This document shows, one piece after another, positions 1,648-59,524 of a stretch of DNA of 64,000 nucleotides. How positions within the stretch are numbered: the stretch's first letter is position 1; the number at the start of each line of letters is the position of its first letter. Made by a program: the position numbers and the translations under genes. The DNA is taken from assembly GCF_003334355.1 (NCBI RefSeq), contig NZ_QOWP01000009.1, one strand, 5' to 3'. The notes beneath the pieces were generated by a model that worked only from the letters and a program-made list of their open reading frames with translations, searched no databases and was not told where the DNA came from. Source of the stretch: Escherichia coli (GTDB taxonomy: Bacteria; Pseudomonadota; Gammaproteobacteria; Enterobacterales; Enterobacteriaceae).

Positions 1648-4359
<2,712 letters not shown>

Positions 4360-4850
4360 TCACTTCACTGTGGAAAATGAGGAAATATTATTTTTTTTGC
4401 GCTTCGTAATTAATGGTTATAAGGTCGGCCAGAAACCTTTCTAATGCAAGCGATGACGTTTTTTTATGTGTCTGAATTTGCACTGTGTCACAATTCCAAA
4501 TCTTTATTAACAACTCACCTAAAACGACGCTGATCCAGCGTGAATACTGGTTTCCCTTATGTTCATCAGATTCATTTAAGCAAGGGTTTCTTCTTCATTC
4601 CTGATGAAAGTGCCATCTAAAAAGATGATCTTAATAAATCTATTAAGAATGAGATGGAGCACACTGGATATTTTACTTATGAAACTGTTTCACTCCTTTA
4701 CTTAATTTATAGAGTTACCTTTCGCTTTTTGAAAATACGCAACGGCCATTTTTTGCACTTAGATACAGATTTTCTGCGCTGTATTGCATTGATTTGCTGC
4801 TAATCCTGTGGTTTGCACTAGCTTTAAGTGGTTGAGATCACATTTCCTTG

Positions 4851-4897
4851 CTCATCCCCGCAACTCCTCCCTGCCTAATCCCCCGCAGGATGAGGAA
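4851..4897 (+). promoter_or_regulatory. malPQ promoter region with three MalT-box-like motifs
   Basis: CTCATCCCC (4851-4859, reverse of GGGGATGAG), CTCCTCCC (4865-4872), GGATGAGGA (4888-4896), about 70-110 bp upstream of the malP ATG; matches the MalT box consensus GGGGA(T/G)GAGG. Confidence 0.7.
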
Positions 4898-4940
4898 GGT
4901 CAACATCGAGCCTGGCAAACTAGCGATAACGTTGTGTTGA

Positions 4941-7358
<2,418 letters not shown>

Positions 7359-17208: not shown

Positions 17209-17318
17209 AGGTGCCTACTTGTTTCTCATTAACTGGATAACTACCTCATGGGGCGTTTGACAGCGACATGAGACCAGATGATTTGCCAACAAAGGAGAGA
17301 TTAAATAATCAACAACAC

Positions 17319-17337
17319 AATGATAATGAGAATGGTT
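17319..17337. promoter_or_regulatory. Fur-box-like AT-rich motif upstream of feoA
   Basis: AATGATAATGAGAATGGTT, partial match to the Fur box consensus GATAATGATAATCATTATC, about 110 bp upstream of feoA. Confidence 0.45.
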
Positions 17338-17397
17338 TCTATCAGCAATACTTAAAATGTGTGCGAATGTTGGTTTGAATAATAATCTGACTCAATG

Positions 17398-17411
17398 TTG
17401 ATGTGGCTCAA
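17398..17411. promoter_or_regulatory. FNR-like site upstream of feoA
   Basis: TTGATgtggCTCAA, one mismatch to TTGAT-N4-ATCAA. Confidence 0.4.
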
Positions 17412-17536
17412 GGTTATATCGCAGCGAAAATATAATTCGAATAGTGAATTACCCGGACTGGCTAATGTTTAATTAAGGTTTCAGTTGTTAATGAAGTGAT
17501 AAATATTGCCGGAATATATTATGAGTTTGGTTGTGG

Positions 17537-17564
17537 AATAAAAAGGCCGGAGATATTCTCCGGC
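17537..17564 (-). terminator. Intrinsic terminator downstream of tex
   Basis: GCCGGAGATATTCTCCGGC hairpin followed on the minus strand by CTTTTTATT. Confidence 0.7.
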
Positions 17565-17590
17565 ACTTTTATGTCAGGCAAAGCGTTCGT

Positions 17591-17625
17591 TGCCAGATGC
17601 GGCGTGAACGCCTTATCGCGCAGGT
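17591..17625. repeat. REP-like element downstream of tex
   Basis: TGCCAGATGCGGCGTGAACGCCTTATCGCGCAGG resembles the REP consensus. Confidence 0.5.
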
Positions 17626-17645
17626 TTAGGGGCCAGTCCGGGCGT

Positions 17646-24534: not shown

Positions 24535-24912
24535 TTCACTGCTCCTTAGCCAATATGTATTGCCTGAATAGTAAAGTCTTTTTGGGGGTGTTAACCGCGA
24601 CAAGGCTCATAGATTTACGTATCTGGAGAAATTCATATTTGACAAAAAACTCCGTGATTCCTGTCACGAAACGGTTGCTATTATCGCAGAAATAGCATTT
24701 TAGGTGTGGAAAATGTTCTCAAAAGGTTAAATCTTGGTTTATATGGCGGGAATATTGTGAGTGGAATCGCATTCCTGAATGAAATTGATGCAAATTCAAC
24801 CGGTAAAGTATCGATTCACCACGCTAACTTTTTTTGATTATTTTCTGAAAAAAGCAAAATACTACTGCCCGGATGCGATAATTAACCCACCTTTTGATTC
24901 TGGATAACCAAC

Positions 24913-36737: not shown

Positions 36738-37887
36738 CGTTCCGGTAGCTCAGGTGTTGCAGGCGCTGGCTGAACAGGAGAAGTTGAACCTGGTCGTGTC
36801 GCCAGACGTCAGCGGTACGGTGTCGTTACATCTAACAGATGTTCCCTGGAAGCAGGCACTACAAACTGTAGTGAAAAGCGCCGGACTGATAACGCGGCAG
36901 GAAGGCAACATTCTCTCAGTGCATTCCATTGCCTGGCAGAATAACAATATCGCCCGCCAGGAGGCGGAGCAGGCGCGGGCGCAGGCAAATCTGCCGCTGG
37001 AAAATCGCAGTATAACCCTGCAATACGCCGACGCGGGAGAACTGGCGAAAGCGGGGGAGAAGCTACTGAGTGCCAAAGGGAGTATGACCGTCGATAAACG
37101 CACCAATCGCCTTTTGCTACGAGATAACAAAACGGCGTTAAGCGCGCTTGAACAGTGGGTAGCGCAAATGGATCTGCCGGTCGGGCAGGTTGAGCTGTCG
37201 GCGCATATTGTCACCATTAATGAAAAAAGTTTGCGTGAGTTAGGCGTGAAATGGACGCTGGCCGATGCGCAACACGCTGGTGGCGTTGGGCAAGTCACCA
37301 CGCTTGGTAGCGACCTCTCCGTAGCGACGGCGACAACGCATGTCGGTTTTAACATTGGGCGCATCAACGGACGCTTGCTGGATCTTGAGCTTTCCGCGCT
37401 CGAACAAAAACAGCAGCTGGATATTATCGCCAGTCCGCGTCTGCTGGCCTCACATCTTCAGCCTGCCAGCATTAAACAGGGGAGCGAAATTCCATATCAG
37501 GTTTCCAGCGGGGAAAGTGGCGCGACGTCGGTGGAATTTAAAGAGGCCGTCCTGGGGATGGAGGTCACGCCCACGGTGTTACAAAAAGGTCGCATCCGGC
37601 TGAAATTACACATCAGCCAGAACGTTCCGGGGCAGGTGCTACAGCAGGCCGATGGCGAAGTGCTGGCGATTGATAAGCAGGAGATCGAAACGCAGGTCGA
37701 GGTCAAAAGCGGAGAAACGTTGGCGCTGGGCGGCATTTTTACCCGTAAAAATAAATCGGGTCAGGATAGCGTACCGTTGCTTGGCGACATTCCCTGGTTC
37801 GGGCAATTATTTCGTCATGACGGAAAAGAAGATGAACGACGCGAGTTAGTGGTGTTTATCACGCCACGACTGGTTTCCAGTGAGTAA
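36649..37887 (+). CDS. hofQ: Secretin HofQ (PilQ/ComE-like outer-membrane channel)
   Basis: 412 aa; signal peptide 'MKQWIAALLLMLIPGVQA'; secretin C-terminal domain. Confidence 0.9.
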   Translation: MKQWIAALLLMLIPGVQAAKPQKVTLMVDDVPVAQVLQALAEQEKLNLVVSPDVSGTVSLHLTDVPWKQALQTVVKSAGLITRQEGNILSVHSIAWQNNNIARQEAEQARAQANLPLENRSITLQYADAGELAKAGEKLLSAKGSMTVDKRTNRLLLRDNKTALSALEQWVAQMDLPVGQVELSAHIVTINEKSLRELGVKWTLADAQHAGGVGQVTTLGSDLSVATATTHVGFNIGRINGRLLDLELSALEQKQQLDIIASPRLLASHLQPASIKQGSEIPYQVSSGESGATSVEFKEAVLGMEVTPTVLQKGRIRLKLHISQNVPGQVLQQADGEVLAIDKQEIETQVEVKSGETLALGGIFTRKNKSGQDSVPLLGDIPWFGQLFRHDGKEDERRELVVFITPRLVSSE

Positions 37888-38287
37888 ACAGCCGTAAAAG
37901 CGGTAATGTTTTTACGCTGAACGTGTTTCATCTATTTGACGCGCGCAGGTATTTAGCATACAAGGAGTACCGATTTGAGAGTTGGTGCTCTTCGCTGCCT
38001 GCGTTCCATGATGATGATTTATCATTCAGGCGGCATTTTGCTGTCTTTTTTACGCTAATCTTACCCGGTGATTTATCGCCAGAGCGGTGGTAGCAAGGCA
38101 GCGCGCTTGCAGCGACCAGATATGCAGAGGGATGGGTGATTTATTCAGTTGCCAAACCCGCTGGAGTATTGAGATAATTTTCAGTCTGACTCTCGCAATA
38201 TCTTATGAGGTTTCAGTTCATGTCCTGCGGCGCTCTCTGAGCGAAGCGGGTTTATCATTAACGAATAGTCTTAGTAGTACCGAAAAA

Positions 38288-38809
38288 ATGGCAGAGAAAC
38301 GCAATATCTTTCTGGTTGGGCCTATGGGTGCCGGAAAAAGCACTATTGGGCGCCAGTTAGCTCAACAACTCAATATGGAATTTTACGATTCCGATCAAGA
38401 GATTGAGAAACGAACCGGAGCTGATGTGGGCTGGGTTTTCGATTTAGAAGGCGAAGAAGGCTTCCGCGATCGCGAAGAAAAGGTCATCAATGAGTTGACC
38501 GAGAAACAGGGTATTGTGCTGGCTACTGGCGGCGGCTCTGTGAAATCCCGTGAAACGCGTAACCGTCTTTCCGCTCGTGGCGTTGTCGTTTATCTTGAAA
38601 CGACCATCGAAAAGCAACTTGCACGCACGCAGCGTGATAAAAAACGCCCGTTGCTGCACGTTGAAACACCGCCGCGTGAAGTTCTGGAAGCGTTGGCCAA
38701 TGAACGCAATCCGCTGTATGAAGAGATTGCCGACGTGACCATTCGTACTGATGATCAAAGCGCTAAAGTGGTTGCAAACCAGATTATTCACATGCTGGAA
38801 AGCAACTAA
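38288..38809 (+). CDS. aroK: Shikimate kinase I
   Basis: 173 aa from the ATG at 38288 ([22 protein letters not shown], Walker A); the ORF track extends 67 codons upstream in frame. Confidence 0.96.
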
Positions 38810-56104: not shown

Positions 56105-57493
<1,389 letters not shown>

Positions 57494-57660
57494 TTAAAAG
57501 GTAACATGACAATGCATGATGAATATAACAACATATGATGTTATGTAATGTGGAGGAAGATCACAAAATTTCGCACAGGATCGCGCTGTGGCTAATGGAT
57601 GTAGTTATCAAATTGAATTTAAAGTGAAAATATTTTTACGGGCGGGGGCAAGAAGGACAT

Positions 57661-57696
57661 AGAAACAAATACGCCCTCGGAAAATCCAGAGGGCGT
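57661..57696 (-). terminator. Candidate terminator downstream of yhfL
   Basis: ACGCCCTC-(loop)-GAGGGCGT hairpin followed on the minus strand by ATTTGTTTCT. Confidence 0.5.
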
Positions 57697-57736
57697 CGGG
57701 CAATTAAACCGGTGTTAGCCGATTTCTGTCAGAGAC

Positions 57737-57904
57737 TTACTGTGCAGTAGGACCGCAACCGCCAATGATTTTAGAAATAGAAATTGCCGGGTGCAGCAGG
57801 TAGTCGTAAGAGCAGTTCTTATCACGGTTTTCAATATGACCAGTACATGCAGTTAACGTAGCCAGTACTGCACCTACCAGTGCAACTTTAATAAATTTGT
57901 TCAT
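57737..57904 (-). CDS. yhfL: Small putative lipoprotein YhfL
   Basis: 55-aa ORF below the ORF-track cutoff, translated by hand: MNKFIKVALVGAVLATLTACTGHIENRDKNCSYDYLLHPAISISKIIGGCGPTAQ; signal peptide with lipobox 'LTAC'. Confidence 0.7.
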   Translation of the reverse strand: MNKFIKVALVGAVLATLTACTGHIENRDKNCSYDYLLHPAISISKIIGGCGPTAQ

Positions 57905-58150
57905 TTACATTCCCTATGTATTATATATTAATTAATATTCATTGATTATATGAATATAAGCAGACTGCTCGTTAAGAACGATACAGGAATATTTAATTGG
58001 CGTCAGTGAGCGAATGACTTAATTTTGTAAGTCGCTGTAACGGTGAATATAACCCATTAGCAGATAATATTTATTAAGGGGCTATGTTTTATTTGCTGAA
58101 TATATAAAAAGAGTCATTAAGAAGGCCAGAATTCTCTGGCCCGGGTTAAA

Positions 58151-59524
58151 TTAATGGTTGGAGAACCAGTTCAGTTTATCGCGCAGGCCAACAACCCGAC
58201 CAATAATAATTAGCGATGGACTGTTCATTTGCTGCGCCAGTTCTCCCAGCTGTGTGAGCGTACCGTCAATCACGCGCTGCGTGACTGCCGTACCGTTTTC
58301 GACAATTGCCACCGGCATTTCGCCTGGCATTCCGTGTTCAATCAGCTTTTGCTGAATAGTCGCGGCCTGATTCAACCCCATATAGAACACCAGCGTCTGT
58401 TTTTCTGCCGCCAGGTTTTCCCAGTCCAGCTCGCCACCGGTTTTTAAGTGTCCGGTAATTAAGCGTACGCTCTGGGCATAATCGCGATGCGTGAGTGGAA
58501 TACCCGAATAGGCAGAGCAACCAGAAGCTGCGGTAATACCCGGAACCACCGAGAACGGAATACCCGCGTTGCACAGTGTTTCCAGCTCTTCGCCACCACG
58601 GCCAAAAATAAACGGATCGCCACCTTTCAGCCGCACCACGCGTTTGCCTTTTTGCGCTTCCCGCAGCAGGATCTGGTTAATCTCTTCCTGGGGTACGCAG
58701 TGGTATCCCGCGCGTTTGCCGACGAAAACACGGTCCGCATCGCGGCGTACCAGATTCATAATATCGTCAGAAACCAGACGGTCGTAGACCACCACATCTG
58801 CCTGCTGAATTTGTTGCAGTCCTTTCAGTGTCAGCAGCCCGGCATCGCCCGGACCTGCACCAACCAGCACCACTTCACCGCGATGGTCGAGCGGTTCGTT
58901 GATTAACTGTTCGGTCGTTTCAGTAATGGCTTTCTGATCGTTGTTTGCCAGCGACTGCGCCAGGCGGTCGTTAACGAACAATTTCTCCCAGAAACGGCGA
59001 CGCTCACCCATCGTGGCGAACTGTTGTTTCACTCGCCCGCGTAATTGCCCGGCGTATTTCGCTACCTGGCCCAGATGTAACGGCAGCAGTGATTCAAGTT
59101 TTTCGCGCAACAGGCGTGCCAGAACCGGAGAGGTGCCGCCAGAGGAGACCGCTACCATGAGCGGTGAGCGGTCAATAATCGACGGCATAATAAAGCTGGC
59201 GGCTTTCGGCGCATCGACCACGTTACAGAAGATGCGACGAGCTTCAGCGGCTTCGCTGACGCGCTGGTTAAGCGCGTCATCATCCGTCGCTGCAATCGCC
59301 AGCCAGCAGGTGTCGAGAAGGCTTTCATCAAATGGCCCTTCGACGAGGGTTAACATGCCTGCATCTGCCCATGCGGTGAACTGTGGAATAAACGCTAATG
59401 CATTCACCGTTAAGCGAGCGCCTGCGTCTAACAGCAACCTTGCTTTGCGTTCCGCGACATCACCACCGCCGACAATCAGACAGTCGCGATCGCGTAATTG
59501 GCAAAATATAGGCAAATGATCCAC
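58151..59524 (-). CDS. cysG: Siroheme synthase (multifunctional)
   Basis: 457 aa; methyltransferase motif '[15 protein letters not shown]' in the C-terminal half. Confidence 0.96.

Follow-up and report, generated by a model that had tools for sequence, protein, structure and literature searches.

The envelope of E. coli contains several small lipoproteins, among them Lpp, OsmB, the entericidins EcnA and EcnB, and LptM (YifL). These proteins have an N-terminal signal peptide with a lipobox and a mature part that is a few dozen residues long; they lack an enzymatic domain and presumably act in the envelope through binding or as structural components. The predicted YhfL protein resembles them in these respects. 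Unlike them, it carries a conserved pair of cysteines, which suggests a disulfide-closed loop. The closest described counterpart of the locus analyzed here is yhfL of E. coli K-12 (b3369; NC_000913.3 3499448-3499615), annotated as "DUF4223 domain-containing lipoprotein YhfL" and flanked by nirBDC-cysG and frlABCDR. Gene, protein (PF13978, DUF4223), and position between cysG and frlA are the same in the stretch of 64,000 nucleotides examined in this study (hereafter, the window), and only the surrounding window, at 99.5% identity to MG1655, sets the two apart. The whole window is co-linear with MG1655 positions 3,493,352-3,557,351 in reverse orientation, and identity is 99.2-99.5% across most of its length and 99.975% in the 8 kb, likewise co-linear, around yhfL. 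A 657-bp region around the gene was matched in all 5426 complete E. coli genomes. yhfL is thus an already catalogued E. coli gene; its recognition in an earlier note on this DNA was correct but did not constitute a new finding.

Coding status and conservation of yhfL

The six-frame list of open reading frames, compiled with a 20-aa cutoff, contains a 55-aa ORF, MNKFIKVALVGAVLATLTACTGHIENRDKNCSYDYLLHPAISISKIIGGCGPTAQ, which begins with ATG and occupies positions 57737..57904 of the minus strand (55 codons plus a TAA stop). The default cutoff of the ORF tool is 60 aa, and the frame lies below it. The earlier note had reported precisely this, i.e., a 55-aa minus-strand ORF missed at 60 aa, and had named the gene yhfL; the ORF list agrees with the former statement, and the mapping to K-12 b3369 together with a full-length Pfam match to DUF4223 agrees with the latter. 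On one side of yhfL lies cysG (a 457-aa ORF with its stop at 58151-58153), and on the other lies frlA, a long permease ORF. The frlA ATG is at 57442 by the curated K-12 start, while the longest-ORF start is at 57493. Given the curated start, the yhfL-frlA spacer measures 294 bp (57443-57736). The features and coordinates that the earlier note assigned to its region therefore stand, except for the left edge at 57494, which had been set with the longest-ORF start of frlA instead of the curated one. Our main reading, to which we assign a probability of roughly 0.93, is that the feature is a monocistronic yhfL gene that has its own promoter and terminator and separates the end of the nirBDC-cysG operon from frlABCDR.

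The Pfam match (PF13978; E = 5.4e-38, 129 bits) aligns residues 1-54 with model positions 1-54 of 54, and every homologue among the matches listed carries the same domain. Searches of the NCBIfam HMMs gave no match to YhfL at E-values up to 0.01, and the PGAP name is still "YhfL family protein". The missing NCBIfam match is no argument against membership of DUF4223, and the PGAP name presumably derives from another rule. Within the species, yhfL was found at a coverage of at least 80% in 5403 of the 5426 complete genomes and belongs to the E. coli core genome. The protein encoded here is identical to that of K-12 and corresponds to the species-wide accession WP_001031834.1; it was the same in all seven E. 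coli sequences compared, between which the DNA differs at synonymous sites only. This accession is also present in O157:H7, Nissle 1917, and other diverged E. coli, where the adjacent spacer shows only ~91% identity, with indels.

The manner in which the coding sequence varies is informative. Among six E. coli strains, all variable sites within the yhfL CDS were synonymous, and between this window and Nissle the count was three synonymous substitutions out of three. Between genera (E. coli, Salmonella, Xenorhabdus, Edwardsiella, and Serratia), the proportion of synonymous differences (pS) was 0.55-0.88 as compared to 0.12-0.17 for nonsynonymous differences (pN); for the mature part of the protein the values were 0.44-0.89 and 0.04-0.17, respectively. 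Synonymous sites are thus near saturation between genera, while amino-acid change is low. Taken together, the substitution pattern and the full-length Pfam match show that yhfL genuinely encodes a protein, evolves under strong purifying selection, and belongs to the DUF4223 family.

An alternative would be that the 55-codon frame is a chance intergenic ORF, or part of a non-coding RNA gene, and yields no protein. The frame is short, it is not preceded by a perfect AGGAGG Shine-Dalgarno sequence, and yhfL is absent from the Ribo-seq supplement of PMC10746267. However, a chance ORF would hardly show a domain match over its full length, 269 homologues at E ≤ 1e-3, exclusively synonymous differences within E. 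coli, a pN far below pS between genera, and a preserved lipobox and cysteine pattern; as for an RNA gene, Rfam gave no match at all. We regard the probability of this alternative as negligible, the substitution pattern having effectively refuted it.

The YhfL family is small and centered on the Enterobacterales. A word-indexed search recovered the 269 relatives, of which the 120 listed span E-values from 1.6e-29 to 3e-19, and when 1.84 billion cluster representatives were searched exhaustively with a profile, only 75 clusters were recovered. The family ranges over the Enterobacteriaceae, Erwinia and Mixta, Serratia, Hafnia and Edwardsiella, and Xenorhabdus, with rare members in Aliivibrio, Carnimonas, and a Cellvibrionales MAG. 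As an example, yhfL is chiefly of methodological interest: with a cutoff of 60 aa, a real core gene under strong constraint goes unseen, and its substitution pattern is by itself enough to recognize it.

Predicted lipoprotein features of YhfL

The earlier note had ascribed to the ORF a lipoprotein signal peptide with an LTAC lipobox, and closer analysis upheld this description. Residues 1-19 (57848..57904, minus strand) read as a signal peptide with a basic n-region (K3 and K6) and an uncharged hydrophobic core, VALVGAVLATL, followed by the lipobox L17-T18-A19-C20 (57845-57856, minus strand), whose C20 is the predicted lipid-attachment residue and the first residue of the mature protein. This N-terminus fits the lipobox pattern [LVI][ASTVI][GAS]C with the cysteine located within approximately the first 35 residues, and also satisfies the PROSITE PS51257-type lipoprotein rule. 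Among 24 homologues from ~20 genera, T16, L17, T18, and C20 were invariant and A19 nearly so, and the lipobox was better conserved than the rest of the signal peptide. The basic n-region and the hydrophobic core are conserved as well. The cysteine at mature position 1 was invariant in 27 sequences, including the distant gammaproteobacterial members.

By these sequence rules, the YhfL precursor would be exported by Sec, a diacylglyceryl group would be added to Cys20 by Lgt, signal peptidase II (LspA) would cut before that residue, and Lnt would add a third acyl chain. An Asp at position +2, together with a suitable +3 residue, is the signal for Lol avoidance. Position +2 is Thr or Ser and position +3 is Gly in almost all YhfL homologues; since the protein encoded here has Thr-Gly and no Asp at +2, its expected destination via the Lol system is the inner leaflet of the outer membrane. 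Conceivably, YhfL could instead be exported as a soluble peptide cut by signal peptidase I, or be a lipoprotein that is kept in the inner membrane. An older product name, "conserved secreted peptide" (quoted in PMC5493296), is in keeping with the former, and lipoprotein sorting rules have known exceptions. The soluble form is, however, difficult to reconcile with an invariant L-T-A/G-C box that, with its cysteine at position 20, obeys the signal peptidase II rule, and with a lipobox that is more conserved than the remaining signal peptide, while Thr at +2 and Gly at +3 provide no Lol-avoidance signal that would retain the protein in the inner membrane. We therefore consider both forms unlikely and favor an outer-membrane lipoprotein.

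The mature protein would be a 36-residue peptide, CTGHIENRDKNCSYDYLLHPAISISKIIGGCGPTAQ (57740..57847, minus strand), with Cys12 and Cys31 as a candidate disulfide pair. The residues at +2 and +3 are followed by a near-invariant core, C-S-Y-D-Y-L-L-H-P-A-I-S-I-S-K-I-I-G-G-C. When all 27 YhfL sequences are aligned, invariance in the mature part is confined to C1, G3, C12, S23, and C31. The spacing between C12 and C31 is constant in 26 of these sequences, and both cysteines are retained even in Aliivibrio, Carnimonas, and Cellvibrionales. Since two further cysteines are invariant at a constant spacing, they probably form an intramolecular disulfide, which would be made by DsbA and would close an 18-residue loop bearing the near-invariant motif SYDYLLHPAISISKIIGG. 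The outcome of these predicted steps would be a lipid-anchored, disulfide-stapled peptide of 36 residues. Such a peptide is too small for catalysis, and YhfL would thus most likely act by binding a partner in the envelope. The Cys12-Cys31 loop could conceivably serve a conserved envelope machine as a dedicated binding module, in the manner of the small accessory lipoproteins recognized in recent years. In that case, the IS1 insertions that recur 1-10 bp upstream of the yhfL start (see below) may alter expression of yhfL.

Structure prediction and database searches placed YhfL in no wider context. AlphaFold2 models reached a mean pLDDT of 62.7 (precursor) and 67.9 (mature peptide), and tentatively depict a beta-hairpin and a short helix; because confidence is low, a fold search would not be meaningful. 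A sequence search of the PDB returned no relative, a PADLOC search gave no match, and PHROG matches cover the signal peptide only, such that the NCBIfam, Pfam, PDB, PADLOC, and PHROG searches linked YhfL to no other family. The literature search found no mention of DUF4223. Most literature matches to the name "yhfL" concern an unrelated Bacillus acyl-CoA ligase gene that bears the same name. A Salmonella CRISPRi screen enriched two yhfL guides, while a clean yhfL deletion was without phenotype (PMC12070745); the remaining mentions are gene lists in expression studies. No function for YhfL emerged from the literature search, which makes it an example of the highly conserved envelope proteins of E. 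coli still lacking an assigned role; its invariant cysteine pair and near-invariant mature peptide make it a tractable target.

Expression signals and flanking spacers

The spacer between cysG and yhfL (57905-58150) is 246 bp long, and its GC content in 100-nt windows is 0.24-0.37 as compared to 0.47-0.62 in the flanking genes, in agreement with the AT-rich character noted earlier. The hairpin that had been placed just past the cysG stop was likewise recovered, both as an inverted repeat and as an RNA fold: GGCCAGA/TCTGGCC at 58124..58141 (minus strand), 9 nt after the stop, is a perfect 7-bp inverted repeat, and as RNA of the cysG strand the segment folds into eight pairs with a dG of -13.7 kcal/mol (z = -2.2 vs. 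shuffles). All six strains compared preserve the stem. The U-tract that follows reads CCUUCUUAAUGAC here and in one other strain and CCUUUUUCGUUU in the other four, and UUUUUCGUUU stands directly after the stem in four of the six. In this strain the tail is UUCUUAAUGACUCUUUUU, and a terminator scan that needs 5 T in 8 bases did not call the hairpin. Judging from the sequence, the hairpin is the probable terminator of nirBDC-cysG.

On the yhfL side of the spacer, we propose a sigma-70 promoter at 57945..57975 (minus strand), consisting of a -35 element TTAACG (57970-57975), a 19-nt spacer, and a -10 element TATAAT (57945-57950). The 19-nt spacing is non-optimal, and the promoter was not called by a consensus scan limited to spacers of 16-18 nt. 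In genomic SELEX maps, the DNA between cysG and yhfL appears among the constitutive RpoD promoters, with the hexamers TTAACG-19-TATAAT and binding of H-NS (PMC3946193), and among the sites of the RpoS holoenzyme (PMC5493296). By its presence in both the RpoD and RpoS lists and its GC content of 24-37%, the spacer resembles the AT-rich, H-NS-bound, stand-alone promoters catalogued by SELEX. Among E. coli phylogroups, the 90 bp upstream of the yhfL ATG hardly vary, in contrast to the cysG-side half, which contains indels and many substitutions. The AT-rich 246 bp would thus comprise the cysG terminator followed by the promoter region of yhfL, the latter bound by H-NS according to the published work.

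A Shine-Dalgarno-like UAGGGA lies at 57911..57916 (minus strand), 6 nt upstream of the ATG, and is invariant in six diverged E. coli strains. An exact-word Shine-Dalgarno score missed yhfL, and duplex energies were used instead; the duplex with the 3' end of 16S rRNA had an energy of -5.9 kcal/mol, within the range of the neighboring genes (-3.9 to -7.7). Downstream of the gene, an intrinsic terminator occupies 57660..57696 (minus strand), with an 11-pair stem at 57671-57696 followed by UAUUUGUUUCU, and all pairs of the stem are kept in six E. coli strains. The 3' UTR also contains an extra small hairpin at 57706..57725 (minus strand; AAAUCGG/CCGGUUU), for which RNAalifold, run on the six E. 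coli strains, gave weak covariation, i.e., one compensatory pair (GC to AU) and several one-sided changes that preserve wobble pairing.

One could also imagine that the cysG-yhfL spacer conceals something more, for example a small RNA, a very short ORF, or the remnant of a mobile element. Its 246 bp exceed what a minimal terminator and promoter require, an 8-bp perfect inverted repeat (57935-57942/57950-57957) brackets the proposed -10 element, and several lineages carry an IS1 insertion within or beside the spacer. Yet the spacer has no ORF of at least 20 aa on either strand, none of its three ORFs of at least 10 codons has a Shine-Dalgarno match, and Rfam gave no match even at E-values up to 1. 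Furthermore, the distal half of the spacer varies among E. coli strains through indels and many substitutions, the flanks of yhfL are not conserved between genera, and short inverted repeats are to be expected in DNA of 25% GC. We therefore judge a hidden element to be very unlikely and retain the reading of a terminator followed by a promoter.

The 294-bp spacer on the other side of yhfL belongs in part to the neighboring operon. The sigma-70 promoter of frlABCD and its FrlR operator occupy 57501..57549 (minus strand), with the -35 element at 57544-57549 and the -10 element at 57522-57527, and are the signals of that operon, not of yhfL. A promoter scan matched ATTACA-16-TATATT with an upstream TG (57522-57549). 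According to published work, transcription from the sigma-70 promoter begins 75 nt ahead of frlA; a class II CRP site is also described, as are a sigma-32 promoter located another 70 nt upstream and a FrlR roadblock operator, GTCATGTTAC, just downstream of the sigma-70 start (bioRxiv 10.1101/2020.01.13.904318). The scanned promoter is consistent with the published sigma-70 start, and the operator GTCATGTTAC was located at 57501-57510. Contrary to the view in the earlier note that the spacers flanking yhfL are unexplored, published data thus exist for both: RpoD, RpoS, and H-NS on the cysG side, and the frlA promoter, CRP, and FrlR on the other.

This region also varies among strains. The frl operon is missing from ~39% of E. 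coli genomes, in which yhfL abuts yhfS, and the breakpoint of this loss is at ~57661, directly after the yhfL terminator. In 6 genomes an IS1 element is inserted at 57906-57914 (9-bp duplication), between the yhfL promoter and ribosome-binding site; in 10 genomes IS1 lies at 57602-57610, in the upstream region of frlA; and in one genome an IS1-bounded deletion has removed yhfL through frlC. The yhfL/frlA spacer has been described as a parallel adaptive target during evolution in the mouse gut (bioRxiv 10.64898/2026.05.27.728231).

Beyond E. coli, yhfL is found in different surroundings. In Salmonella it lies between bigA and trpS, in Edwardsiella it adjoins an integrase, in Serratia it is near speFL-speF, and in Xenorhabdus it is located elsewhere again. 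No conserved partner gene was found among the neighbors in these four genera, and gene neighborhood was rejected as a clue to YhfL function because the neighbors differ in every genus compared. Nor was a conserved non-coding element found up- or downstream of yhfL between genera, the CDS alone being alignable. yhfL is a self-contained monocistronic gene that stands alone in many Enterobacterales.

Other intergenic spacers and the aroK leader

The earlier note had suggested that other genes of less than 60 aa could be hidden in four larger spacers, namely malP/malT (4354-4964), yhgF/feoA (17209-17645), yhgE/pck (24535-24912), and hofQ/aroK (37888-38287). These spacers are devoid of annotated features both in the curated K-12 record and in the Nissle annotation by PGAP. 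We used pairing with the 3' end of 16S rRNA to score all 135 ORFs of 8-59 codons and compared the best of them with Nissle. A 36-aa ORF in yhgF/feoA showed a premature stop and an amino-acid change, and for candidates of 24, 26, and 41 aa all changes were nonsynonymous. The hofQ/aroK spacer is at least 99% identical in 5425 of 5426 E. coli genomes, and because it is nearly invariant, a 27-aa ORF with a TTG start in this spacer could not be judged within the species; the 3' half of this ORF is absent in Klebsiella, Kosakonia, and Rouxiella, and its AAGGAG is buried in a 13-bp hairpin. Small-ORF prediction with scoring of ribosome-binding sites, which had been proposed as a check, thus gave no coding signature in the four spacers, and the suggestion of a hidden small gene is not supported by these sequence comparisons.

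As a by-product of this search, a leader of ~105 nt preceding aroK (38188-38292) was found in the hofQ-aroK spacer. It is nearly invariant across the Enterobacterales and contains a covarying hairpin. An extended -10 promoter, TTGCCA-18-TGaGATAAT, lies at 38149-38178, ahead of this 5' UTR, in the last 150 bp of the spacer. In Klebsiella this stretch is 90% similar as compared to 86% for the aroK CDS, and in Kosakonia both are 87%. A 24-nt leader motif was present in at least 120 genomes of the Enterobacteriaceae, Erwiniaceae, Yersiniaceae, and Hafniaceae. In the genomes matched, the flanks of the leader are nearly invariant, and the central GC-rich hairpin varies in sequence and length and always folds. 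A covariance model built from 11 sequences matched 100 of 100 sources (99 loci and the window), once each. Five of the ten pairs of the stem show compensatory changes, and 53 cells were changed on both sides as compared to 23.6 ± 8 in shuffles (none of 500 shuffles reached 53), with a covariation score of 0.232 vs. 0.151 in shuffles and at most 0.085 with the partners slid; the alignment is model-fitted, and these covariation counts lean somewhat towards structure as a result. An 11-residue uORF in the leader was rejected: several genera have lost its ATG, and neither its frame nor its length is kept.

No Rfam 15 family matches the leader, and a literature search whose scope did not extend to the older dam-operon literature returned nothing on a natural aroK leader. 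That the leader is both functional at the RNA level and undescribed so far seems to us possible rather than probable. Since no Shine-Dalgarno sequence is recognizable for aroK, initiation of translation or the fate of the mRNA may be controlled by the leader, which could conceivably serve as a cis-regulatory RNA for the aroK-aroB-damX-dam-rpe-gph-trpS operon, of which aroK is the first gene. As a deeply conserved, structured mRNA leader, it may deserve a study of its own.

The leader and upstream region of aroK

Upstream of aroK, we delimited a 5' leader of ~105 nt (38188-38292, plus strand), served by a promoter at 38149-38178 on the same strand. The leader is nearly invariant across Enterobacterales, being carried by at least 120 genomes, and a covariance model built on it found a match in all 100 of the sources searched. 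Its central hairpin shows compensatory changes at 5 of 10 pairs, with a covariation score of 0.232 compared to 0.151 for shuffled controls and at most 0.085 for slid ones. Rfam holds no family for the leader, and no recognizable Shine-Dalgarno sequence was found for aroK. The aroK leader may be an undescribed cis-regulatory RNA.

The 400-bp spacer between hofQ and aroK (37888-38287) is at least 99% identical in 5425 of the 5426 complete E. coli genomes compared. The region that is almost without diversity in E. coli reaches from the 3' end of hofQ through the spacer and the aroK coding sequence (37601-38800), where differences from E. coli Nissle 1917 number 0-2 per 400 bp, as opposed to 5-20 in the flanks. 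This low diversity extends to the E. coli-specific middle of the spacer and to synonymous sites of aroK. The spacer also contains a second conserved block, TTTGACG...GATTTAGCWTACAAGGRGTACCGATTTGAG (37930-37995, plus strand), common to species from E. coli through Rouxiella, which probably comprises a distal promoter and the 5' arm of a 13-bp hairpin; a terminator-like hairpin (38028-38046) comes next in E. coli.

Small elements around yhfL

The small lipoprotein gene yhfL (57737-57904, minus strand) follows the probable cysG terminator, whose tail (58095-58123, minus strand) is polymorphic. Among six diverged E. coli strains, the tail reads CCUUCUUAAUGAC, with 4 bases missing, in the window and one other strain, while the remaining four carry CCUUUUUCGUUU, which offers a better U-tract. 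Lineages may thus differ in how far transcription runs on from cysG into yhfL.

Closer to yhfL, a perfect 8-bp inverted repeat, ATATTCAT-N7-ATGAATAT (57935-57957), flanks the gene's proposed -10 element (57945-57950, minus strand) on both sides and is mostly conserved in the E. coli strain comparison. It could be an operator, or else a chance occurrence in DNA of 25% GC. A minimal start-stop ORF, AUG UAA (57905-57910, minus strand), immediately precedes the yhfL AUG in the same frame; since it abuts the yhfL Shine-Dalgarno sequence (57911-57916), its use is unlikely. At the other end of the transcript, the 3' UTR of yhfL contains a small additional hairpin upstream of the terminator (57706-57725, minus strand), which appears to be maintained among E. 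coli lineages, with a single compensatory change and several substitutions that preserve wobble pairing.

Presence of frl and IS1 insertions

The junction that separates genomes with and without frlABCDR falls at ~57661, directly 3' of the yhfL terminator. The operon is missing from ~39% of complete E. coli genomes, Nissle 1917 for example, and in these yhfL adjoins yhfS. In the window, the longest ORF of frlA (462 aa, start 57493) goes beyond the curated gene, which has 445 aa and starts at 57442; the 51-nt over-extension (57443-57493) corresponds to 5' UTR lying between the FrlR operator (57501-57510) and the curated start.

Two IS1 insertion sites, each with a 9-bp target duplication, were found near these genes. 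The first (57906-57914), occupied in 6 genomes, parts the proposed yhfL promoter from the ribosome-binding site; two sequenced IS1 copies at this site show 6 differences over 768 positions. The second (57602-57610) is situated upstream of frlA, at the position expected for the sigma-32 promoter, and is occupied in 10 genomes, most of them of pig or cattle origin. One further genome carries an IS1-bounded deletion spanning yhfL to frlC. Elsewhere, at ~9477, the window lacks 64 bp of K-12 (MG1655) sequence that, by coordinates, belong to the gntT-malQ spacer.
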